A stretch of DNA of 36,528 nucleotides from sequence record SRR33789315_102; one strand, written 5' to 3'. Each line of letters begins with the position of its first letter. Within the stretch, counting starts at the first letter, position 1. This document shows positions 4,883-25,975 of this stretch, in pieces. Made by a program: the position numbers and the translations under genes. Below the pieces are notes generated by a model. That model was not told where the DNA came from. It was given only the letters and a program-made list of their open reading frames with translations, and did no database searches.

Positions 4883-6148
4883 TTAGATTAAAAATTCAAA
4901 CAAATTGGGTTTATCGTTTAAATAGACGCTATAAAAATTACGTTGTTTCATTCTTGAAAGTAATGGCTCAAAGTCTTCTTTACTTTTTATTTCGATACCT
5001 ACAACCGCTGGACCTTCTTCTCTACTCGTCTTCTTTTTATATTCAAAAAAGGTTATGTCATCACTAGGTCCTAATACATCATTTAAGAATTCTCTTAAAA
5101 CGCCTGCACGTTGTGGAAAACGTATAATAAAATAATGCTTCAATCCTTGATGGAGCAAAGCTCTTTCTTTGATTTCGGCCATGCGTGTGATATCATTATT
5201 GCTACCACTTACGATGCACACCACATTCTTTCCTTTAATTTCTTCAGAATATTGATCTAATACAGCTAATGTAAGTGCACCAGCAGGCTCAACCACAATG
5301 GCATCTTTATTATATAAATCTAGAATAACCTGACATATTCTACCTTCTGATACTGTTACCATATCGTGAAGATATTCTGAACAAATTGCAAAGTTTCGGT
5401 CACCCACACGCTGAACAGCGGCACCATCAACGAACTTTTCAATGTTTTTAAGTGTCGTGTTCTCGTGGTTCATTATGGATGTTTTCATAGATGGCGCACC
5501 TTCAGGCTCAACTCCTATGACTTTAGTATGAGGAGACAAAACTTTAAAAACCGAACTTATACCAGCAGCCAATCCTCCACCACCAACAGGTATGAAGATG
5601 TAATCTATAGGGATATCTGTTTGTTCTAAAATTTCTAAGCCTACAGTTGCCTGACCCTCGATTATCTTTTCGTCATCAAAAGGATGCACAAAAGCTTTTC
5701 CCAATTGGTCACATTCTGCCTTTGCTGCAACATAAGCATCGTCAAACGTATCGCCCGTAAGTACTATATCTACATACTCCTGACCAAACATTTCAACTTG
5801 CTCAATTTTTTGTTGCGGTGTAGGTGACGGCATAAAAATCGTCCCGTGTATTTTTAATTTTGCACAAGCAAATGCTACTCCTTGTGCATGATTTCCTGCA
5901 CTGGCACAAACTATACCTTGTTTTCTATCTCGCGCGTCAAGCGAACTAATCTTGTTATAGGCTCCACGTATTTTATAAGATCTAACTTGTTGTAAGTCTT
6001 CTCTTTTTAATAATATATTAGATTCAAATTTTCTTGAATAGGTTAAACTAGCAAGCAAAGGAGTTACCGCAGCAATCCCTTTTAGGGTTTCGGTTGCCTT
6101 TCTAACATCCTTTAGATCTGGAAAATATGTGGTTTTAGTATCACTCAT
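4883..6148 (-). CDS. ilvA: Threonine ammonia-lyase (biosynthetic, short form)
   Basis: SYKIRGA PLP lysine, [13 protein letters not shown] and a C-terminal regulatory domain. Confidence 0.95.
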
Positions 6149-6187
6149 AAGCTTGCCGTGAATTTTGCCATTCTGTTAAATCATTAA

Positions 6188-7687
6188 TTAAGCCATTATG
6201 GCTTCTTTCTTATCAGAAGTCTTAACGTCTTTCATAGCAGTCATTGATTCTCTCAACCAAGCTCCTACTTCTTCAACAGGGTGATTTCTTATTTCATCAT
6301 TCACAAAAATCAATTCTTTATTATCAACACCATTATTGGTTGCAAATGCTTTTCCAATAACATCTGTTTCAATATTTTTCATAAAATCTGTAAGTAAAGG
6401 CTTACAAGCGTGATCAAACAAATAACAACCATATTCAGCAGTATCTGAAATGATTCTGTTCATTTCAAATAATTTCTTACGGGCGATAGTGTTTGCTATT
6501 AAAGGGGTTTCATGAAGCGACTCATAATAAGCAGATTCCTCTATTATACCTGCTTCTGTCATTGTTTCAAAAGCCAATTCGACTCCAGCTTTTACAAAAG
6601 CGATCATCAATACACCGTGATCAAAATACTCTTGCTCAGAAATTTCCATTGTACCAGCATCTGTCTTTTCAAAAGCTGTTTCTCCTGTGGCTTCTCTCCA
6701 AGTTAGCAGATTTACATCATCATTTGCCCAATCTTCCATCATCGTTTTTGAGAAATGACCAGAGATAATATCATCCATATGTTTATGGAAAAGCGGTCTC
6801 ATAATTCCTTTTAACTCTTCAGCTAGTTCAAAAGCTTTGATTTTTGAAGGATTATTCAAACGATCCATCATATTGGTAATACCACCGTGCTTCAAAGCTT
6901 CGGTAATAGTTTCCCAACCGTATTGAATCAATTTTGCAGCATATGAGGCTTCAATTCCTTTTTCGATCATCTTATCAAAACACAAGATAGAACCCGTTTG
7001 TAAAACACCACAAAGAATGGTTTGCTCACCCATCAAGTCACTTTTTACTTCAGCAACAAATGAAGACTCAAGTACACCTGCACGATCACCACCAGTAGCC
7101 ACTGCATAAGCTTTTGCTTGCGCAAGACCTTCTCCTTTAGGATCATTTTCTGGATGCACAGCAATAAGTGTTGGTACTCCAAAACCTCTTTTATATTCTT
7201 CTCGAACTTCTGAACCAGGACATTTTGGCGCCACCATAATTACCGTTAAATCCTTACGGATTTGCATTCCTTCTTCAACGATATTAAAACCATGGCTATA
7301 AGCTAATGTAGCTCCTTGCTTCATTAAAGGCATTATCGTTTTTACAACTGAGGTGTGTTGCTTATCTGGGGTAAGATTACATACTAAATCTGCATCAGGA
7401 ATCAACTCATCATAAGTACCTACTGTAAAGCCATTTTCTGAAGCATTAAGAAAAGAAGTCCTTTTATCTTTAATTGCTCCTGCACGTAAAGCATAGGAAA
7501 TATTCAACCCAGAATCACGCATGTTAAGCCCTTGGTTAAGGCCTTGTGCTCCACAACCTACAATCACTACTTTTTTTCCTGCTAAGGCTTGAATACCGTC
7601 TTGAAACTCATCTGCCTCCATAAATCTACATTTCCCAAGTTGAGAAAGTTGGTCTCTTAACGATAAGGTATTAAAATAATTACTCAT
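6188..7687 (-). CDS. ilvC: Ketol-acid reductoisomerase, long class II form
   Basis: [16 protein letters not shown] and [12 protein letters not shown] motifs; 499 aa. Confidence 0.97.
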
Positions 7688-7744
7688 TGTATTTTAGTTA
7701 ATCTATTAGTTTAAATAATTTTTATAAAATTCTTTTATGCAGTA

Positions 7745-8287
7745 CTATGACTGAATAATTTCGTTATCAAATTCTTTTAAAATTTTTGAAATTCTCATTT
7801 GGTCTTTTGTCACTGCAATACGTCCAGAACGCACAAATTGCATAATTCCGAAAGCGCTAAGTTCTCTATATAGCATCTCTATTTCATTTCTGCGACCCGC
7901 TTTTTCTAATACAAAAAACTTCTTATTTACAGTTACTATTCTAGCATTACTGTCTTTAATGATATTTTGAATTTTACGCTCCTCAAATAGCAAACTTGAC
8001 TTTATCTTAAACAAACAAGTTTCTAAGAAAATGGTTTCTTCATCAGTGTGATAAAACGCCTTAATCACTTCTACTTGCTTCTCTAATTGACCAATTATTT
8101 TTTTGATCTGTTCTTCGGTCATATTTACTACAATCGTAAATCTGGATACCCCTTCAATTTCTGACATGGAAGTATTAAGACTCTCAATATTGATATGTCT
8201 ACGCTGAAATATAGCCGAAATACGGTTTAACAGCCCTACATGATTTTCGGTATAAATAGAAACTGTAAATGTTTTTATCTTGCTCAT
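7745..8287 (-). CDS. ilvN: Acetolactate synthase small (regulatory) subunit
   Basis: ACT domain ENHVGLLNRISAIFQRRHINIESL; adjacent to the large subunit. Confidence 0.93.
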   Translation of the reverse strand: MSKIKTFTVSIYTENHVGLLNRISAIFQRRHINIESLNTSMSEIEGVSRFTIVVNMTEEQIKKIIGQLEKQVEVIKAFYHTDEETIFLETCLFKIKSSLLFEERKIQNIIKDSNARIVTVNKKFFVLEKAGRRNEIEMLYRELSAFGIMQFVRSGRIAVTKDQMRISKILKEFDNEIIQS

Positions 8288-8288
8288 C

Positions 8289-10025
8289 TTATTCTAGTCT
8301 TATATCTGAAACAGAAGCTCCCGAAGGAACCATAGGAAATACATTATCTTCTTTTTCTACCATTACCTCAAGAAAATAAGCATTTGGCGAATCCATCATT
8401 TCCTTTATAGCTCCGGCTAATTCTTCTCTTTTTGTAACCTTTTTAGCATCAATATAATATCCTTGTGCAATAGCTACAAAATTAGGGTTTATCATCTCTG
8501 TGGAAGCATATCTTTTATCAAAGAATAATTGCTGCCACTGGCGTACCATACCTAAAAACTCATTATTAAGCACTACGATCTTTACTGGAACTTTAGACTG
8601 AAAAATAGTACCTAATTCTTGAATTGTCATTTGATAACCACCATCTCCTATAATAGCAACAACTTCACGTTCTGGAGCTCCCATTTTTGCTCCAATAGCT
8701 GCAGGAAGCGCAAATCCCATTGTTCCTAAACCACCAGAGGTAATATTGCTCTTCGTCTTATTAAACTTTGCATAGCGGCAAGCTATCATTTGATGCTGAC
8801 CCACATCTGAAACTATAATTGCATCTCCGCCAGACTCTTTATTTATCCCTTCAAGAACTTCTCCCATAGTAAGGCCTTCTTTTGTAGGATAAATATCTTC
8901 TTTTATAATTTTTTCAAACTCTATAGCATACATGTCTTTAAACTTAGTATGCCAAGCCGTATGTGTTTTCTCCTTTAAAAGGGGCAAAAGTGCAGCTAGG
9001 CTTTCTTTGCTATTTCCTAGTACTGCAACATCTGCTTTTACATTTTTATTAATTTCTGAAGGATCTATTTCAAAATGAATAACCTTGGCTTGTTTTGCAT
9101 AAGCATCCAGCGAACCCGTTACTCGATCATCAAAACGCATCCCGATCGCAATCAAAAGATCACATTCATTTGTTAATACATTAGGCGCATAATTACCATG
9201 CATCCCCACCATACCCACATTAAGCGGATGATCTGTTGGTATTGCCGAAACGCCTAAAATTGTCCATGCCGCAGGGATTCCAGATTTCTCTACTACCGCT
9301 TTAAATTCTTCTTCTGCTTTTCCTAAAATAACACCTTGCCCCCAAACAATCATAGGCTTTTTTGCCTTATTGATTAGTTTTGCAGCCTCTTCAACCTGTT
9401 CTTGTTTTAATTTAGGAACAGGTTTATAGCTTCGTATTGCTGTGCATTTTTTATAGATGAAATCTAGCTCTTCATTTTGAGCATCTTTGGTAATATCAAT
9501 CAAAACTGGTCCAGGACGACCACTTCTAGCTATATAAAAAGCTTTAGCCATGATTTCAGGAATCTCAGCTGCTTTTGTTATTTGATAATTCCATTTTGTT
9601 ACTGGTGTAGATATCCCAATAATATCTGTTTCCTGAAAAGCATCACTTCCTAATAAATGAGATGCCACCTGCCCGGTTATACAAACCATAGGGGTAGAAT
9701 CTATTTGCGCATCTGCAATTCCTGTAACCAGGTTTGTTGCCCCAGGCCCTGATGTCGCAATAGCGACGCCTACTTTTCCAGTGGCTCTTGCATAGCCTTG
9801 TGCAGCGTGTGTTGCGCCTTGCTCATGACGTGTAAGTACGTGATGTAATTTATCTTGATATTTATATAGTTCGTCATATACTGGCATGATTGCTCCGCCA
9901 GGATATCCATATATAGTTTCTATACCTTCAGCCAGAAGACATTTTATGATAGCTTCTTTGCCTTTAAGTCGCTGCATCACCACCGCCTTATCTTCAGCCT
10001 TAAACTTTACTATTGGTAATTCCAT
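8289..10025 (-). CDS. ilvB: Acetolactate synthase large subunit
   Basis: GYPGGAI, RHEQGA, TSGPGATN and the ThDP motif GDGGYQM...NN. Confidence 0.96.
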   Translation of the reverse strand: MELPIVKFKAEDKAVVMQRLKGKEAIIKCLLAEGIETIYGYPGGAIMPVYDELYKYQDKLHHVLTRHEQGATHAAQGYARATGKVGVAIATSGPGATNLVTGIADAQIDSTPMVCITGQVASHLLGSDAFQETDIIGISTPVTKWNYQITKAAEIPEIMAKAFYIARSGRPGPVLIDITKDAQNEELDFIYKKCTAIRSYKPVPKLKQEQVEEAAKLINKAKKPMIVWGQGVILGKAEEEFKAVVEKSGIPAAWTILGVSAIPTDHPLNVGMVGMHGNYAPNVLTNECDLLIAIGMRFDDRVTGSLDAYAKQAKVIHFEIDPSEINKNVKADVAVLGNSKESLAALLPLLKEKTHTAWHTKFKDMYAIEFEKIIKEDIYPTKEGLTMGEVLEGINKESGGDAIIVSDVGQHQMIACRYAKFNKTKSNITSGGLGTMGFALPAAIGAKMGAPEREVVAIIGDGGYQMTIQELGTIFQSKVPVKIVVLNNEFLGMVRQWQQLFFDKRYASTEMINPNFVAIAQGYYIDAKKVTKREELAGAIKEMMDSPNAYFLEVMVEKEDNVFPMVPSGASVSDIRLE

Positions 10026-11921: not shown

Positions 11922-11950
11922 AAAAAAAAACCTTCCGCTATTGCGGAAGG
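11922..11950 (-). terminator. Intrinsic terminator of the ilv attenuator
   Basis: Perfect 8-bp stem CCTTCCGC-AATA-GCGGAAGG followed by 9 T on the minus strand. Confidence 0.9.
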
Positions 11951-12097: not shown

Positions 12098-12745
12098 TTA
12101 AGAATCAATCAACTTGTTTTTAAATGCATACAATACCAAGCCTATTCTGTTTTTAACTTCTAGTTTTTTAAATAGATTATCCCGGTAGTTATCTATTGTC
12201 TTTGGACTTAGACACATCACATCTGCAATTTCTTTATAGGTCTTCTCAGAACACGCCAGTTCTAAAAACTCTAGCTCTCTCGAAGAAAAGTTATCTACTA
12301 TTCTTTCTACATTTCTGTTATTAACACTGTCTAATAATGCCTGGGTTACCTGATCTGAATAGTAATGACCTTTTTTAACAAGCTCTTTTAATGCCTGCTC
12401 TAACATATCTGGGTGAATGTCTTTAAGCAAATAGCCTCTGCTGCCTAATCGCAACATTTTGATTATCGTTTCTTCATCATCATCCATAGAGAGGGCTAAC
12501 ACTTTAATATCTGGCTTTTCCTTAACAAGCCACTCCATCGTCTCAAAACCATTGCGTACCGGCATATTAATATCTAAAAGAAGTATATCCGGATTTACAT
12601 TAAAATTATCTAGTTTATTAATAAGGTCTACTCCATTTTTTGCAATAAAAACCACATTGAAGTTATCAAAACTACTTATCAATCTTTGCAAAGACTCTGC
12701 AAAAAGCACGTGATCATCAACAATACCTACTTTATAAACACTCAT
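12098..12745 (-). CDS. NarL/LuxR-family response regulator
   Basis: REC domain (VDDH, LLDINMP, GYLLK) plus LuxR HTH (SSRELEFLEL...YKEIADVMCLSPKTIDNYR). Confidence 0.93.
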   Translation of the reverse strand: MSVYKVGIVDDHVLFAESLQRLISSFDNFNVVFIAKNGVDLINKLDNFNVNPDILLLDINMPVRNGFETMEWLVKEKPDIKVLALSMDDDEETIIKMLRLGSRGYLLKDIHPDMLEQALKELVKKGHYYSDQVTQALLDSVNNRNVERIVDNFSSRELEFLELACSEKTYKEIADVMCLSPKTIDNYRDNLFKKLEVKNRIGLVLYAFKNKLIDS

Positions 12746-12811
12746 AATTAACTAATTTTGAGATAGATACTTACTAATATCTTTTAAATTTAAGGATTAA
12801 AACTCCATAAA

Positions 12812-13657
12812 TTACATTTCTCTATATTCTTTTATCTTTCTTTTAGGGTATTTAATTTTTAATGTTGTACCCACATTGGGTTGAGAATCAAGTTTAAAAG
12901 AAGCTCCTATAAGTTTTGCTCTACTCTCCATATTAATTAAACCAGAATTTTTACTTATAGTTTCCATATCAAACCCTACTCCATCATCCTTAATACTTAT
13001 TTCCAGGCTCTTTTCTTTATAATTTAAAGACATGGTTAAACTTTCTCCCTTTGCGTGTTTAATCACATTACTAAAGAATTCTTGTATAATTCTAAACAAT
13101 ACTAAGCTGTCGTAATTAGACAAAGACCATGGTTTACCTTTACATTCATAATCTACATCAAGGTATTTTAGTCGCTCAAATCGTTTTAGTTCGTTCTCTA
13201 TAGCATCAACAAGACCCAATTTACTAATCACCTCAATATTAAGTCCTTTTGAAAGTGCTCTAACTTCTTGTAATGATTTACTTACAAGTTCTTTTATCTC
13301 TACTACAGAATCATCCTCCTGTTTTCTGCACAAAATATTAAGCTCTAGATTTGCTACCGAAAGTAGTTGCCCAACATTATCATGTAATTCCCAACTCACA
13401 TTTTTTAAAGCATTTTCCTGTATTTCTAATTGTGATTTGGTCACCTCTTCTAAGTATCGCTTCTCTGCTAAATTACGCTCTCTTATAAACTTAATTTTAC
13501 GTCTTTGAAATATGGTAAAGAGTACAATTACAATAAGCATAAAAGTAAAAAGCACAATAGATGATGCAATAACCAGATGTCTTACCTCATCATTACTTGC
13601 GAAATTATCCTTCTGATCACTATAAATTAAGTAAAAGATGACAGATGTTCTAATCAA
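12812..13657 (-). CDS. Histidine kinase (HisKA_3 + HATPase) with one N-terminal TM helix and no sensor domain
   Basis: WELHDNVGQ H-box, EFFSNVIKHA N-box, DDGVGF and GLINM G-boxes. Start position uncertain. Confidence 0.9.
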   Translation of the reverse strand: MIRTSVIFYLIYSDQKDNFASNDEVRHLVIASSIVLFTFMLIVIVLFTIFQRRKIKFIRERNLAEKRYLEEVTKSQLEIQENALKNVSWELHDNVGQLLSVANLELNILCRKQEDDSVVEIKELVSKSLQEVRALSKGLNIEVISKLGLVDAIENELKRFERLKYLDVDYECKGKPWSLSNYDSLVLFRIIQEFFSNVIKHAKGESLTMSLNYKEKSLEISIKDDGVGFDMETISKNSGLINMESRAKLIGASFKLDSQPNVGTTLKIKYPKRKIKEYREM

Positions 13658-14318
13658 AATTAGTATTTGGTTTAACAGGATGCTCTACTCTATCAGGCTC
13701 TACCACTATAAAGGCTAATGCTATGCAACTATATTGTATTACATTTAAAATAAACAATACTGTTGTCCATAAGTTAGGATCATTTTTCTCAAAAAAACCT
13801 TGAAATAATTCAAAGGGAAGATACACAACACAAAACAATAATGTGCCAAAAGCTACCCAAAAGTAAGGTGATTTAGAGACATTCAATACTACCTCTTCTG
13901 TATTAAGCATTTCACTTAAATATAAACCTATACTTATAGTAAGGAAAATTGTACCTAACACATAGGTATAACTCAAGAAATTTGAGGTGAAATCAAGAAA
14001 TAAAGCATTACCAAGCCAAAAAATAACGAAAATAAAAAGTAACGCAAGCATTATCCTTCTTAATAATTTAGATTTAATTAACTCAGAATACCACCAAATA
14101 AAAAATCCGAAATAGACTAAATAAAAAATATTATACGGTATATAATTAGGTATTTTAAACCAAGGGTAGGATATACCTGCAAAAAAATCATTTAAAGCAA
14201 CATACCACAACAACAAAAGAACATATTTTAGCTTTTCATGTTTAAATTTTCGATAATTTAATGTACCTATTACCGCCGCAACAAGTTCTAAGTATTGCGA
14301 ATACCCGCTTAATTCCAT
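13650..14318 (-). CDS. Polytopic membrane protein (about 7 hydrophobic helices), candidate receptor
   Basis: Repeated hydrophobic segments; stop overlaps the kinase ORF start. Confidence 0.8.
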   Translation of the reverse strand: MELSGYSQYLELVAAVIGTLNYRKFKHEKLKYVLLLLWYVALNDFFAGISYPWFKIPNYIPYNIFYLVYFGFFIWWYSELIKSKLLRRIMLALLFIFVIFWLGNALFLDFTSNFLSYTYVLGTIFLTISIGLYLSEMLNTEEVVLNVSKSPYFWVAFGTLLFCVVYLPFELFQGFFEKNDPNLWTTVLFILNVIQYSCIALAFIVVEPDRVEHPVKPNTNFD

Positions 14319-14329
14319 TAATAGTTTTA

Positions 14330-14743
14330 TTAATTTTCATATGACTTAGTTGGTGGATTACCAGCATGTCCCTTATTAAAAGCACTAGCGCCAGGAATAT
14401 CATCACTCGCTGTAGTCTTAGTTGATAAAGTTTTTTCAGGAGCAGATAATTTATTACCCGTAGGAGCCATAAATAATGTTGTTCCTGTATTTGAAGAATC
14501 ACTAGGATAGGTTCCTAAATATATACGAATGCCATCTAGTGTATAACCATTTTTTTGAGCCTCCTGTTCTGCATAAGCTAAAAACTGCTTAATATCTGCT
14601 AAACGCCACCATACAGATCTATTCTCTGTAGAATCTAAAGATTTACCAATAGCAGTAGTACGTACTCGTGTATATTCTACATCTAACATTTTTGCATCTT
14701 CGGGAGAAATTGTTCCTGCTGGAGCGCTTACTTGATCTGCCAT
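14330..14743 (-). CDS. Hypothetical 137-aa soluble protein leading the signalling module
   Basis: Clean ORF 11 bp upstream of the membrane protein. Motifs RSVWW, GIRIYLGTYP, TLFMAPT and C-terminal NKGHAGNPP. Confidence 0.8.
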   Translation of the reverse strand: MADQVSAPAGTISPEDAKMLDVEYTRVRTTAIGKSLDSTENRSVWWRLADIKQFLAYAEQEAQKNGYTLDGIRIYLGTYPSDSSNTGTTLFMAPTGNKLSAPEKTLSTKTTASDDIPGASAFNKGHAGNPPTKSYEN

Positions 14744-14915
14744 GATTTTATATTTTAAAAGTTATAATTCCTGAGATAAGTGTAGTTCTTTAATATCGTA
14801 TACATTCTTTTAAAAATTGATTTTATAAACTAATTATACGGCATGTATAAACTCCTACTGAATATAAATTTTTATCTAAAGTAATGGAATAGTTTAAGAG
14901 TCTCTAATTTCAATC

Positions 14916-14959
14916 AAAAAAAGGGGGAAAATCCCTTTTTTTTAAGGTGAAAAACTCTA
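14916..14959. promoter_or_regulatory. Inverted repeat (possible pxpC terminator) and/or tandem regulator boxes
   Basis: AAAAAAAGGG-GGAAAAT-CCCTTTTTTTT hairpin. Related 16-mers at 14922-14937 and 14944-14959. Confidence 0.5.
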
Positions 14960-14982
14960 GAAAAGCACTAGTTCTTGCAACC

Positions 14983-15837
14983 TCAATCAATTTTAATATC
15001 AAAAACAACTTTCGATCCTGCGGGTTTCTGAGACAATGCACAAATGCCCATTTCAGTAAGTTGTAGAATCCTAGGATATCCTCCTGTAACCTGACAATCC
15101 CGCATCAAAACGATTACATTCCCTAATGGTGTAAGTTGCACCGTTCCAGGCAATACAGGAGCCGTAACCAAACCTTTAAAGTTATTATCTATCAAATTTT
15201 CAAACTGAAATGCCATTCGATTACTACTGCTAATAACCGTAAGCGCGGTTTGCAACAAATTCTGTTTGTGATTATGAGAGAGTAACTCAAATTCTGGACC
15301 CGGACAAACATCAATAGCCGTATTAAATATTTCGCTTTCGCGAAAATTCACCCGAGCATAATCTATTGTATTTGTATTTCCTTCATAAACCGGAAGCAAA
15401 TCACCTTTAGACAATTTACTTGCCTTTGTAATCCCTTTATACATACTTCTACTCCCCAATACCAGTTCTGTTTGAAAACCTCCAGCAATAGCTAAATATG
15501 CACAAAGCCCTTTAACCAGCTTTTTAAATGTCAATTTATCACCCGTAGCTACAGTATAGGTCTTGTTCATTTTTAACTCAAGGTCATTTAAGTAAAACAG
15601 AAAATGGGCACCCGTAATGGCAATTGTAGTTTTTCCTGTAAATTCTAGAATTGGACCTTGCATTATAATTTCAAGAACCGCATCGTTTTTATCATTATTG
15701 AGTAATAAATTAGCTCTTTGAGCTGAAATCGAATCCATAGCTCCGCTAATAGGAACTCCAAATTTGGCATATCCATATCTACCCAAATCCTGAACAGTAG
15801 TAAAAAACCCAGGATGAATCACTTTAACCGAATTCAT
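14983..15837 (-). CDS. pxpC: 5-oxoprolinase subunit C (carboxyltransferase A/B family)
   Basis: TTVQDLGRYG, GVPISGAMD and DCQVTGGYPRI motifs. Confidence 0.9.
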   Translation of the reverse strand: MNSVKVIHPGFFTTVQDLGRYGYAKFGVPISGAMDSISAQRANLLLNNDKNDAVLEIIMQGPILEFTGKTTIAITGAHFLFYLNDLELKMNKTYTVATGDKLTFKKLVKGLCAYLAIAGGFQTELVLGSRSMYKGITKASKLSKGDLLPVYEGNTNTIDYARVNFRESEIFNTAIDVCPGPEFELLSHNHKQNLLQTALTVISSSNRMAFQFENLIDNNFKGLVTAPVLPGTVQLTPLGNVIVLMRDCQVTGGYPRILQLTEMGICALSQKPAGSKVVFDIKID

Positions 15838-16559
15838 ATCTTTTCTGGAATCAAATGATAATTTCCTAACTGGGATTGAGTCAAAATATTTTGATGTTCT
15901 TCTTCATCTATTTCATAAAACTGAATCTTATCTCCAGCACTAAAAAGCGAGGGTTTTTCTAGCCGAATATTAAAAAGATTAATGGGACAATTTCCTATAA
16001 TTTGCCACCCTCCTGGGCTTTCATCAGGGTAAATTCCGGTTTGATTTTCAGCTATCCCTACTGCTCCTTTTTGAACACTTGCACGAGGCGTGTTTCTACG
16101 TGGAGTTGCTATGCTATTTTCTAATCCGCCTAAGTAAAGAAAGCCCGGTAAAAAACCTATAAAATAAAGTAGATAATCTGGCTTTGTATGATGCTCAATT
16201 ATTTCTTCTTTGGATAATCCGGTTGAGATACTAACAGCATCCATGTCTATTCCAAAAAAACTATAGCATACTGGTAAGCGCCATAGAGAACGGGAAAACT
16301 GATTTGGTAAATCAACATTAAAATCATTAGCCTCTAATAGCTTAAAATCACTATAAACATTATCTATACTTAAAGTGTAAACAACACATAATGAATTATA
16401 TGTGTTTATAACCTCAACAGATGATTTAACTAATAATTGTTCTACTCTTTGTTTAGCATTAAGTAAAAACAAAAGCGATTTTTCTTCAATATCCAACTCC
16501 CACTGAAGTAGAATACCACGATCTCCTAATCTGGTTATATGGGGTTTTAAAGATTCTAT
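15834..16559 (-). CDS. pxpB: 5-oxoprolinase subunit B; start probably upstream of the ORF-track TTG at 16496, at ATA 16559
   Basis: IGFLPGFLYL, TPR and GIYPDESPGGWQIIG motifs. The open upstream frame encodes the typical ITRLGDRGILLQW N-terminus. Confidence 0.85.
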   Translation of the reverse strand: MESLKPHITRLGDRGILLQWELDIEEKSLLFLLNAKQRVEQLLVKSSVEVINTYNSLCVVYTLSIDNVYSDFKLLEANDFNVDLPNQFSRSLWRLPVCYSFFGIDMDAVSISTGLSKEEIIEHHTKPDYLLYFIGFLPGFLYLGGLENSIATPRRNTPRASVQKGAVGIAENQTGIYPDESPGGWQIIGNCPINLFNIRLEKPSLFSAGDKIQFYEIDEEEHQNILTQSQLGNYHLIPEKI

Positions 16560-16560
16560 A

Positions 16561-17292
16561 TTAGCTTATTTTTATTCCGTGTAAAGGAAGGTTTATCTGT
16601 AAATATTTAATAATTTCAACTGCATTTGGCGTGTCTCCATGAACGCATATCGTATCTACTTTTATCTCTTTTTCACCACCAGAAATCACATTGACTTTTT
16701 CTTCTAAAACCATATTTTTTACTTGATCTAGGATCTCAAGAGTATCTGTTATTAATGCATTTTTTTGATCTCTTGAAACCAAATTTAAGTCTTCCTGATA
16801 GCTACGATCTGCAAACCCTTCAAAAGCTAATTTAACACCTTTAGATGGTAAGGATTTTATAACCGAATTTACTGGAATATATAGATGCAAATCGCTATAA
16901 TATTCTTGCATCAATCCGAGTAACATTCTAGCATAATTCACATCTTGATTGCAACTATGATACAACGCGCCATGCGCTTTTATATGATTGACTTCAACAT
17001 TGTTTAGCTTACATATAGCTACTACCCTATCTATTTGCTCTTTGATATTTGCACTTAATTCGTCGATAGGCATAGCTACATATTTCCTACCAAAATGCTC
17101 TCGATCTGGAAAAGAAGGATGCGCTCCTATTTTCACTCGATTTTGCTTTGCTAACAATACTGCTTCGGTTATACTGTCAATAGATCCTGTATGACCACCA
17201 CAGGCAATACTACACGAACTTATATAAGGCATGAGTTCTTTTTCATTACCTATGCCTTCACCTACATCACAATTAAGATCTATTTTAATCAT
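16561..17292 (-). CDS. pxpA: 5-oxoprolinase subunit A (LamB/YcsF family)
   Basis: IDLNCDVGEG, IACGGH, GAHPSFPD, HIKAHGALY and CVHGD motifs. Confidence 0.93.
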   Translation of the reverse strand: MIKIDLNCDVGEGIGNEKELMPYISSCSIACGGHTGSIDSITEAVLLAKQNRVKIGAHPSFPDREHFGRKYVAMPIDELSANIKEQIDRVVAICKLNNVEVNHIKAHGALYHSCNQDVNYARMLLGLMQEYYSDLHLYIPVNSVIKSLPSKGVKLAFEGFADRSYQEDLNLVSRDQKNALITDTLEILDQVKNMVLEEKVNVISGGEKEIKVDTICVHGDTPNAVEIIKYLQINLPLHGIKIS

Positions 17293-25100: not shown

Positions 25101-25580
25101 ATGAAAAAACTATGTTTTGCTTTGCTCACAATTGTTTTACTTTCTTGTGATGGCAATGCTCAAAAAAAGAATAATCAAAGTTTCGCTATTTCTAAAACAG
25201 ATACAGAATGGAAAGCCATACTTCCTTCCGAAGCTTATTATGTATTAAGAGAACAAGGCACAGAACGTCCTTTTTCTAGTCCGTTATTAAATCTCAAAGA
25301 AAAAGGCACTTATGTATGTGCCGCTTGCCAAAATCCACTATTTAAAAGTGAATACAAATTTAAAAGCGGTACGGGTTGGCCTTCTTTTGATCGCGAGATA
25401 AAAGGCAATGTAGCTTATGAAAAGGGTAATAAACTAAATTATGGTTCTGAAGAACACTGCGCAAATTGCGGTGGGCATTTGGGACATGTATTTAATGATG
25501 GACCAAAAGAAACTACTGGACTGCGTCATTGTATTAATGGAGACGCACTTAATTTTATCCCTGAAGATCAAGAAAAATAA
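25101..25580 (+). CDS. msrB: Peptide-methionine (R)-S-oxide reductase, lipoprotein form
   Basis: Lipobox LLSC, GTERPF, CAAC, GWPSF, CANCGGHLGHVF and RHCING motifs. Confidence 0.93.
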   Translation: MKKLCFALLTIVLLSCDGNAQKKNNQSFAISKTDTEWKAILPSEAYYVLREQGTERPFSSPLLNLKEKGTYVCAACQNPLFKSEYKFKSGTGWPSFDREIKGNVAYEKGNKLNYGSEEHCANCGGHLGHVFNDGPKETTGLRHCINGDALNFIPEDQEK

Positions 25581-25582
25581 TT

Positions 25583-25975
25583 ATGGAAAAATATCCTGTT
25601 GAAAAAACCGAAGTCGAGTGGAAAGAACTTCTCGATCCTGAGAATTATTATGTACTACGCCAAAAAGGCACAGAACGTCCGCATACCGGAAAATACAATT
25701 TACATTTTGAAGACGGAACCTATACTTGTGGTGCCTGCCACGTTCCCTTATTTGAAAGCAACAGCAAATTTGATGCTCATTGCGGATGGCCCAGTTTTGA
25801 TGAAGCACTAGAAGGAGCTATTGAATATGTTCCAGATACTACTTTAGGCATGAAAAGAACAGAAATTTTATGCGCAAACTGCGGAAGTCACTTAGGTCAC
25901 GTTTTTGATGATGGCCCAACAGCAACTGGTCAACGCTATTGCGTAAATTCGTTAAGTATCGATTTTGAAAAATAA
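25583..25975 (+). CDS. msrB: Peptide-methionine (R)-S-oxide reductase, cytoplasmic form
   Basis: GTERPH, CGAC, CGWPSF, CANCGSHLGHVF and RYCVNS motifs; no signal peptide. Confidence 0.95.
   Translation: MEKYPVEKTEVEWKELLDPENYYVLRQKGTERPHTGKYNLHFEDGTYTCGACHVPLFESNSKFDAHCGWPSFDEALEGAIEYVPDTTLGMKRTEILCANCGSHLGHVFDDGPTATGQRYCVNSLSIDFEK

Follow-up and report, generated by a model that had tools for sequence, protein, structure and literature searches.

How does a histidine kinase that has no sensing domain of its own receive a signal, and what part might be played by two proteins of no recognized family that are encoded directly ahead of it? These questions are raised by a run of four genes at positions 12098-14743 of sequence record SRR33789315_102, a stretch of DNA of 36,528 nucleotides that was analyzed whole and that we refer to as the window. 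An initial annotation, made from the letters alone, had suggested that these genes form a Bacteroidota autoinduction circuit comparable to the agr and com systems, in which the small lead protein (g1) would be a ligand, a precursor with a releasable C-terminal tail, or a signal-producing enzyme, sensed by the membrane protein encoded next (g2).

Our analysis points elsewhere: the cassette looks like helper-protein-dependent two-component signaling and not like peptide quorum sensing. The reading we favor, to which we give a probability of roughly 55%, is that these genes encode a multiprotein membrane sensor, in which g2 supplies the input to a sensor-less kinase, g1 is an accessory component, and a NarL/LuxR-type regulator provides the output. 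On present evidence, such a sensor opens no new category of signaling.

The four open reading frames (ORFs), read from the ORF list and its translations, follow one another in the same direction on the minus strand:

14330..14743, minus strand: g1, 137 aa, ATG start
13650..14318, minus strand: g2, 222 aa, ATG start
12812..13657, minus strand: sensor-less histidine kinase, 281 aa, TTG start
12098..12745, minus strand: NarL/LuxR-type response regulator, 215 aa, ATG start, REC and GerE domains

The tight, co-oriented spacing reported in the initial annotation was confirmed directly from the sequence. An 11-bp gap separates g1 from g2, the g2 and kinase genes overlap by 8 bp (TTGATTAG), and 66 bp lie between the kinase and regulator genes.

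The kinase looks active but blind

The kinase matched two Pfam domains, HisKA_3 at aa 88-140 (E-value of 2.9e-07; 31.4 bits against a cut-off of 24) and HATPase_c at aa 183-273 (3.2e-10), and no third domain was found. Ahead of these lie a stub of about 27 aa and a single hydrophobic segment at aa ~28-50, in keeping with the earlier description of a kinase with one transmembrane (TM) helix and essentially no input domain. The TTG at 13657 is the sole ATG, GTG, or TTG start upstream of the TM segment. One hydrophobic segment was likewise all that we found in each of the 29 aligned homologs, and H92 and the N, G1, and G2 boxes were invariant in all 30 kinase sequences. With invariant catalytic boxes and no input domain found, the kinase looks from its sequence to be active but blind. 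Given that the TM segment is as well conserved (0.70) as the DHp and catalytic parts (0.71-0.75), with the juxtamembrane segment at 0.82 and the stub at 0.32-0.45, the TM helix is probably more than an anchor.

The regulator matched Response_reg (5.7e-23) and GerE (6.3e-14) in Pfam. Its best NCBIfam matches, MctR and NarL, were both under their equivalog cut-offs, and the kinase was also far below the cut-off of the MctS equivalog. By domain content, the two proteins form a two-component pair of a HisKA_3 kinase and a NarL/LuxR regulator.

Three genes, not four, form the conserved unit

We scanned GTDB species genomes with a six-sequence g1 alignment and the pattern [LNK][GN]Y[TK][LM][DT]G[IM]R[IV], which occurred at 254 places, 30 of which encode a g1 relative. 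These 30 loci (designated by L numbers below) were all drawn through g1 and represent one g1 subfamily. The named loci belong to 11 genera, ten of them Flavobacteriaceae, and the remainder are metagenome-assembled genomes. The eleventh genus is that of L021, "Algicola sp.," which NCBI files under Pseudoalteromonadaceae. Its g1, g2, and kinase fall among those of Psychroserpens, nearest to L018, and the mismatch is probably a clash of names rather than a transfer.

Using tblastn and hidden Markov model searches, we found the same order in 28 of the 30 loci: g1 is followed by between one and four g2 genes, and these by a kinase 39-55% identical to that of the window. The exceptions were L022, whose contig ends after g1, and L014, which is disrupted by an insertion sequence. 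The L014 locus (5335-8836) is decayed: N-terminal (93 aa) and C-terminal (104 aa) fragments of g1 are split by a DDE transposase gene, and downstream of them g2 is truncated to 155 aa and the kinase is missing. Because L002 carries two in tandem, there are 29 cassettes in the 28 loci; two g1 genes are present in both L008 and L012. The 8-bp overlap between g2 and kinase genes seen in the window recurs in L003, L007, L008, and L011, and when maximal ORFs are used, 24 of the 29 g2-kinase pairs overlap.

To characterize the flanks, Pfam was run on 121 neighboring proteins from 15 of the 30 loci. The upstream neighbors included pxpC-like, ComM/Mg-chelatase-like, Lrp/AsnC, CAAX-type protease, and Na+/H+ antiporter genes, and those downstream included genes for an RluA-type pseudouridine synthase, a DUF1579 protein, an aldehyde dehydrogenase, an acyltransferase, and an ATP-grasp protein. 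Since the flanks vary and the cassette stays, it is the cassette that is conserved and not the neighborhood.

The initial annotation held that its idea would be refuted if the linkage of all four genes were not conserved. The linkage stood for g1, g2, and kinase but failed for the regulator, and for the regulator only. A receiver-domain gene was found within 8 kb of the cassette only in L017 (69% identical to the window regulator; the next match had an E-value of 0.041), which places a regulator beside 1 of the 28 cassette loci and the window. The conserved unit is therefore three genes, and the four-gene form is seen only in the window and L017, within the window's own small clade. The kinases of these two are sisters in the kinase tree (support of 100).

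A kinase without an input domain needs a partner, and g2 is the candidate that is always present and often overlaps it. The earlier suggestion that the two proteins are a split sensor fits this pattern, with g2 the kinase's constant upstream partner in 28 of 30 loci. Alternatively, g1 and g2 may be envelope proteins that are merely cotranscribed with the kinase, for example as the first target of the system, and form no sensing complex. Auxiliary genes of the same operon can indeed be dispensable for activation, as SaePQ reportedly are (PMC5083920), and it is gene linkage that points to a g2-kinase complex here. However, this alternative would leave the kinase with no input, and it has to contend with a linkage that persists despite changing flanks and with the overlap of the g2 and kinase genes.

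A further point against mere cotranscription comes from Formosa algae L002 (7983-12421), which carries two complete tandem cassettes, one with a g1 that lacks an N-terminal anchor and one with an anchored g1. The twin kinases are 82% identical, and the g2 and g1 pairs have diverged to 34% and 38% identity, respectively. Within the kinases, identity is 15 of 28 aligned residues in the stub and TM segment, where the alignment begins, versus 196 of 228 in the rest. Given this pattern of divergence, input specificity appears to sit in g1, g2, and the membrane part of the kinase. Taking both sides together, we consider it rather unlikely that g1 and g2 are simple passengers of the operon. The window g1 is nearest to those of L003 and Formosa, and the window g2 and kinase are nearest to those of L017. 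These placements involve long branches with weak support, and we make no claim of different histories for g1 versus g2 and kinase.

g2 is predicted to be a receptor-like seven-helix bundle

The initial annotation had described g2 as almost entirely membrane helices. This was borne out by seven hydrophobic peaks in its sequence and by seven long helices in its AlphaFold2 model, a 7TM bundle with a predicted local distance difference test score (pLDDT) of 90.7 and a predicted template modeling score (pTM) of 0.87. Lys/Arg-rich loops lie between TM1 and TM2 (3.7 such residues per sequence) and between TM3 and TM4 (4.0), from which the N terminus is predicted to be outside and the C terminus inside. 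Across 45 sequences of the family, P168, N192, and Y196 are invariant, and E11, A14, A15, G18, Y133, and F153 are nearly so; all nine residues lie within helices. An AgrB-like peptidase is not indicated, since no His, Cys, Ser, or Asp is invariant in the same 45 sequences.

A word-based search recovered seven g2 homologs among 438 candidates (46-57% identity; ~220 aa), three of them named Leeuwenhoekiella, and in the g2 tree the window, L017, and Leeuwenhoekiella share a deep branch (support of 100). Neither Pfam nor NCBIfam gave a match to the window g2 at E<=1, Pfam gave a single marginal match across the 45 family members, and the best PDB sequence in a profile search had an E-value of 0.32. 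The first two genes had been put forward as having no characterized function, and our searches agree: by sequence, neither the g1 nor the g2 family has a name, a solved structure, or a match in Pfam-A or NCBIfam. Literature searches returned nothing on such cassettes or families, an absence that is weakly supported given that the searches were narrow and open access and that the families are nameless.

When the g2 model was compared with PDB structures in Foldseek, the 49 listed matches were all eukaryotic G-protein-coupled receptors (GPCRs). These matches are weak, with none at E<=0.001, a best E-value of 0.079, probabilities of 0.54-0.99, and template modeling scores by query of 0.33-0.52. 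Seven helices and an N-out/C-in charge pattern are seen in g2, and its sequence shows no similarity to GPCRs. From the model, we read g2 as a receptor-like seven-helix bundle and not as a member of the GPCR family.

All 45 g2 homologs are stand-alone proteins of ~220-260 aa. We ruled out that g2 and the kinase are one frameshifted gene, given these 45 stand-alone proteins and the recurrence of the overlapping layout in other genera. No fused g2-kinase form was present among 1652 longer candidates, which is weak evidence. A single g2 is found in 24 of the 29 cassettes, two copies in three, and three and four copies in one each. Some of these paralogs have orthologs in other genera (for example, copies 1 and 2 of L010 and L011; copy 4 of L024 with copy 2 of L027), and the duplications are therefore old and retained. 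Both the amplification of g2 and its cross-genus paralogs are expected if g2 sets input specificity.

It is also possible that g2 is a transporter or a membrane enzyme whose working state is monitored by the kinase, with g1 as a substrate-binding or helper protein. BceAB-BceS and DctA-DcuS are precedents for flux sensing and cosensing of this kind. The intramembrane polar residues E11, N192, Y196, and Y133 would suit a transport or catalytic site, and the anchored or lipoprotein forms of g1 are placed like a tethered binding protein. Cosensing transport proteins also feed sensor-poor kinases, and UhpC is transporter-like (PMC7607045). Set against these points, g2 matches no transporter or enzyme family (the 1 marginal Pfam match in 45 and no PDB sequence at E<0.3), it is small for such a role (222 aa, seven helices) with no repeat symmetry noted, its structural neighbors, although weak, are receptors and not carriers, and the g1 fold matches no binding-protein fold. 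We regard a monitored transporter or enzyme as unlikely.

g1 is a small domain with a conserved tail

The window g1 has three parts: aa ~12-98 form an alpha/beta core, aa ~99-113 are a linker rich in Ser, Thr, and Lys, and a conserved tail (DIPG...N.G..GNPP..Y) follows. The sequence features first quoted for it, RSVWW, GIRIYLGTYP, TLFMAPT, and the tail NKGHAGNPPTKSYEN, were all found in the translation, as was the reported lack of a signal peptide: no hydrophobic segment is present at the N terminus of g1, and the reading frame is closed by a stop 7 codons before its start. It contains no cysteine.

The window g1 had no match in Pfam or NCBIfam at E<=1, and a word-based search found one homolog (P0002; 41% identity) among eight candidates. 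We then ran a profile of g1 and P0002 against 1.84 billion cluster representatives, which gave 478 representatives at E<=1e-3, 175 at <=1e-10, and 21 at <=1e-30 (family members are designated by P numbers). A typical member has 160-180 aa and starts with a TM anchor or a lipoprotein-type signal, followed by a core of ~95 aa (DNRSxWxSL...Y..YA..EA...GY..G.R.Y.G.Y....T.F..PTG), a Ser/Gly-rich linker, and the tail D-I-P-G-x3-L-N-x-G-x2-G-x-P-P-x3-Y-P-Q. A crude regular-expression sort of 150 listed representatives out of the 478 yielded 39 lipobox-like, 57 anchor-like, and 54 with neither, the last class including fragments and some misfiled rows. Pfam gave no consistent match across 108 family members (seven families with one member each, E-values of 0.004-0.009), and the best PDB sequence in a profile search had an E-value of 0.082. 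The concern that the lead protein might belong to a known unrelated family therefore did not materialize in Pfam, NCBIfam, or PDB.

The structural model of g1 was confident (pLDDT of 87.8; pTM of 0.77), with long helices at aa 14-36 and 48-64 and a long beta-hairpin at 67-78/88-98. The pLDDT is 61 in the linker (aa 101-110) and 92 at the start of the tail (aa 111-120), and the tail forms beta-bridges at 114-115, 122, and 126-127. Judged by pLDDT and these beta-bridges, the tail is predicted to pack on the core. Foldseek returned nothing at E<=0.001 for this model from PDB (best E-value of 0.58; template modeling score by query <=0.28) or BFVD (best E-value of 0.14).

Among 32 cassette-linked g1 copies, conservation is 0.75-0.81 in the two strands, 0.62 in the tail, and 0.40 in the linker, whose length is 10-22 aa and mostly 16-22. 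The tail motif is kept in all 32 copies, across the 11 named genera. An N-terminal anchor or signal is present in 25 copies, including a clear lipobox (LLSAC) in L017, and the other seven (the window, L003, L004, L006, L016, and the first copies in L002 and L012) begin directly at the domain. The anchored and anchorless states have changed at least twice on the g1 tree. A hidden or lost anchor was considered and rejected: in none of the seven anchorless loci, the window included, did any of the three frames upstream of g1 encode a remnant resembling a TM segment.

Two matched stretches occur in family members of 226-356 aa (P0011, P0013, P0030, P0046, P0125, P0143, and P0152). P0011 and P0013 comprise two tandem g1 domains, each followed by its own tail motif, and so the tail motif needs no free C terminus. 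In another member, P0111 (116 aa), the kinase stub motif MVQTGERLASTA stands at the start and leads into a g1 core, either through recombination or gene fusion or as an artifact of assembly.

These properties of g1 bear on the autoinduction hypothesis, under which g1 releases its tail, serves as a signal, or makes one, and g2 senses the product and activates the kinase. The hypothesis draws on the position of g1 at the head of the unit, tightly linked to a receptor-like 7TM protein and a kinase, and on the low-complexity linker that precedes the C-terminal tail in 32 of 32 copies, which a protease could cut. The window g1 also has no Sec signal, as is the case for AgrD. Nevertheless, the tail is conserved across genera, unlike strain-specific pheromones, and rather than being hypervariable and free it is predicted to be packed on a folded domain of ~95 aa and is internal in P0011 and P0013. 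A diffusible ligand is further contradicted by the 25 of 32 copies that are anchored or lipoprotein-like, and the window copy has no export signal. The g1 core has no enzyme-like match in Pfam, the PDB profile search, or Foldseek, and g2, as noted above, has no invariant His, Cys, Ser, or Asp. Finally, neither a peptidase nor an ABC exporter was constant among the neighbors in the 15 scanned loci, where a CAAX-type protease lay upstream in only three. On computational grounds alone, we consider autoinduction through g1 very improbable.

In one clade, Pfam places Lrp/AsnC and CAAX/Rce1-like protease genes directly upstream of g1 on the same strand in L020, L024, and L027, and L028 and L029 have the same arrangement by ORF pattern. 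A CAAX/Rce1-like intramembrane protease beside an anchored g1 could matter for processing; it is missing from the other loci.

The anchorless copies raise the potential that g1 acts in the cytoplasm in these cases, modulating the kinase or the cytoplasmic loops of g2 in the manner of small anti-kinase proteins. This would accord with a window g1 that has no export signal and no upstream coding remnant and that, being cysteine-free, does not depend on periplasmic disulfide formation. With seven anchorless copies in 32 and at least two changes on the tree, the state is also not a one-off defect, and about one-quarter of the 150 listed representatives start at the domain, although these classes are crude and include fragments. 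Yet most relatives carry a lipobox or anchor, including L017, whose g2 and kinase are closest to those of the window, one domain functioning in two compartments would be unusual, and no likeness to known anti-kinases was found by Pfam, the PDB profile search, or Foldseek. A cytoplasmic modulator therefore strikes us as a rather doubtful explanation for the anchorless g1.

Proposed mechanism

In the membrane sensor that we propose, the kinase alone could not perceive a stimulus, having one TM helix and no input domain. Instead, g2 would bind or sense the stimulus within the membrane or at its outer face, and it would control the kinase by helix-helix contact with the conserved TM and juxtamembrane segment. 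A third component, g1, would modulate the g2-kinase complex as an accessory; in most relatives it would be a lipoprotein or be tethered on the outer side of the inner membrane. How far a NarL/LuxR-type regulator is phosphorylated would in turn be set by the kinase; the regulator gene is adjacent here and would lie elsewhere in most genomes. The analysis shows how the genes are ordered and that this order is conserved, which domains they encode, and which folds and topology are predicted; we infer the physical contact, the identity of the stimulus-perceiving partner, and the sign of regulation. That the stimulus is a membrane- or envelope-associated cue is a low-confidence guess by analogy.

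Several observations weigh against this proposal. Every contact among g2, kinase, and g1 is deduced from gene linkage, and the linkage itself was ascertained starting from g1, through a narrow pattern that covers one subfamily of the wider g1 family of 478 representatives. The window g1 and 6 of the other cassette copies (of 32) have neither signal nor anchor, and the outer-face role consequently fails here unless g1 is otherwise exported. Even for anchored homologs, the orientation of the anchor is not certain, since in some of them the flank after the TM segment is more positive than the N terminus. The likeness of g2 to GPCRs is below significance and may reflect a generic seven-helix bundle. 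On the output side, a regulator adjacent in 1 of 28 loci and the window leaves the output undefined in most genomes. There are three ways to accommodate the anchorless g1: the domain may work on both sides of the membrane, it may take another export route, or it may act differently.

A more specific possibility is that g2 is a ligand-gated 7TM receptor that signals to its separate kinase by helix contact in the membrane, and g1 its tethered co-ligand, whose tail, once exposed by an envelope cue, would plug an outer pocket lined by E11, P168, N192, and Y196. The tail would stay tucked on the g1 core until stretch, binding of a surface ligand, or proteolysis exposed it. We think this version quite improbable. 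If it were true, it would represent bacterial receptor-plus-transducer signaling, the g1 tail would be similar to the buried tethered agonists of adhesion-type receptors, and tandem g2 paralogs would tune one kinase to several cues.

Comparison with known systems

If the proposed membrane sensor exists, how does it relate to systems that have already been described? Judged by Pfam and NCBIfam, the cassette shows no homology to the Sae, Lia, Uhp, or BtsS systems; the logic is alike and the parts appear unrelated. Intramembrane-sensing histidine kinases, as defined by Mascher, have no extracytoplasmic sensing domain, and a short outer loop connects their two TM helices. The cassette kinase resembles them in having no extracytoplasmic sensing domain, and linkage suggests that it depends on accessory proteins, but it has one TM helix instead of two in the window and in all 29 homologs.

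In the four-gene Sae system (SaePQRS) of Staphylococcus aureus, SaeS and SaeR are of the HisKA/OmpR type. As in the cassette, genes for a small (lipo)protein and a polytopic membrane protein precede that of a kinase without an extracytoplasmic sensing domain; g1 is a lipoprotein in L017 and is anchored in most loci. SaeP is a lipoprotein of 146 aa and SaeQ a 4-TM protein; both join the intramembrane-sensing kinase SaeS in a ternary complex and change its activity (PMC5083920). SaeQ has 4 TM helices versus the 7 of g2, and SaeS has two TM helices (PMC5083920) versus the one of the cassette kinase. The gene order also differs, with helpers, regulator, and kinase in sae versus helpers, kinase, and, where present, regulator here, in a different phylum. 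This likeness is architectural; a relation of g1 and g2 to the Sae helpers was judged from Pfam and NCBIfam, in which neither g1 nor g2 has a match.

LiaFSR (VraTSR) is a three-component system of Firmicutes whose kinase, LiaS, carries a HAMP domain along with two TM helices. In LiaFSR, the kinase and regulator are of the same HisKA_3 and NarL/LuxR classes as in the cassette, and a membrane protein is likewise encoded just upstream of the kinase. According to PMC3543457, LiaF is an accessory membrane protein that controls LiaS, a kinase without a sensing domain, in the LiaS/LiaR pair. The surface protein LiaX of enterococci is a sentinel that senses the stimulus and modulates the system (PMC6936494). 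By comparison, g2 has no LiaF-type domain or family match, no relation of LiaX to g1 was seen (g1 having no family match), and the cassette kinase is not a LiaS equivalog: LiaS was its third-best NCBIfam match (4.8e-20), at 72.1 bits against a cut-off of 450.

UhpABC of Escherichia coli also combines a separate polytopic sensor with a HisKA_3 kinase and a NarL-family regulator. UhpC, a 12-TM MFS protein, perceives the signal and activates the HisKA_3-type UhpB, which has 8 TM helices and acts on a NarL-family regulator (PMC7607045). In contrast, g2 has 7 TM helices and no MFS match, the cassette kinase has 1 TM helix and matches UhpB as its second-best NCBIfam family (2.7e-27) at 95.7 bits against a cut-off of 408, and Uhp has no g1-like protein.

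Like agr and com, compared here through the commonly known features of agr, the cassette brings together genes for a kinase and a regulator with those for a small protein and a polytopic membrane protein. However, g1 is a folded protein of 137 aa with a conserved tail and not the precursor of a short variable peptide, no dedicated peptidase or exporter accompanies it in the 15 loci, the kinase has no polytopic sensor of its own, and the regulator is of the LuxR and not the LytTR type. Fused 7TM kinases offer another comparison, as a seven-helix module is the ligand-binding input of the histidine kinase in LytS-type BtsS (PMC10653868). In BtsS and the 7TMR-DISM proteins, a single polypeptide contains both the 7TM module and the kinase, whereas all 45 g2 homologs are encoded by separate genes, and g2 had no Pfam match to the 5TMR_LYT or 7TMR families.

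The input route of kinases without a sensor domain is known for few systems, nearly all from Firmicutes and enterobacteria. The cassette offers a Bacteroidota example built from two uncharacterized families, with up to four g2 paralogs per kinase. Marine Flavobacteriaceae, in which the cassette is widespread, play a major part in breaking down algal polysaccharides, and its regulon may matter for their ecology. Twin cassettes, anchored versus anchorless g1, and one to four g2 copies also constitute natural experiments for partner specificity.

Surroundings of the cassette

The unit is bordered in the window by two noncoding features:

14744..14982, minus strand: upstream noncoding region of 239 bp, likely promoter of the unit (sequence read)
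11931..11950, minus strand: G+C-rich hairpin followed by nine T, likely terminator (stem from a scan, T run read)

The hairpin lies ~150 bp past the regulator stop, with its stem reported on the plus strand by the scan, and by sequence it is likely to be the terminator of the unit. In the upstream region, the nonamer TTACTTTAG, which we take to resemble the Bacteroidota -7 element TAnnTTTG, lies at 14876-14884, ~130 nt before the g1 ATG. The same or a nearly identical nonamer is found 30-45 nt upstream of g1 in L007, L017, L018, L020, L021, and L030, loci that mostly have anchored forms of g1. The difference in distance between the window and these loci is about the length of the missing anchor-coding part, but it is no general rule: the anchorless g1 of L002 has a near variant, CTACTTTAA, ~30 nt upstream. 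A sigma-70 promoter scan gave 20 sites versus 17.8 expected, with no enrichment. Rfam gave no RNA family in the window, and no extra copy of g1 or g2 was found there.

Directly upstream of the cassette, at 14983-17292 on the minus strand, lie pxpA/pxpB/pxpC-type genes (LamB_YcsF, CT_C_D, and CT_A_B). The CT_C_D/CT_A_B pair was verified by Pfam upstream of the cassette in the window, L001, and L007, and a pxp-like pattern of ORF sizes is also seen in L005, L012, L013, L015, L018, L021, L023, and L030. KipI and KipA, the Bacillus homologs of pxp-type proteins, were originally characterized as an inhibitor of a kinase and the antagonist of that inhibitor. Given that other loci carry different upstream genes, the adjacency of pxp genes to the cassette is probably lineage synteny. 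In L017, the closest relative of the window, a Pvc16_N-domain gene (7101-7697, minus strand), of a kind that belongs to contractile injection-system-like clusters, lies just upstream of the cassette. Farther away in the window, two adjoining SelR genes (MsrB-type methionine sulfoxide reductases of 159 and 130 aa) occupy 25101-25975 on the plus strand.

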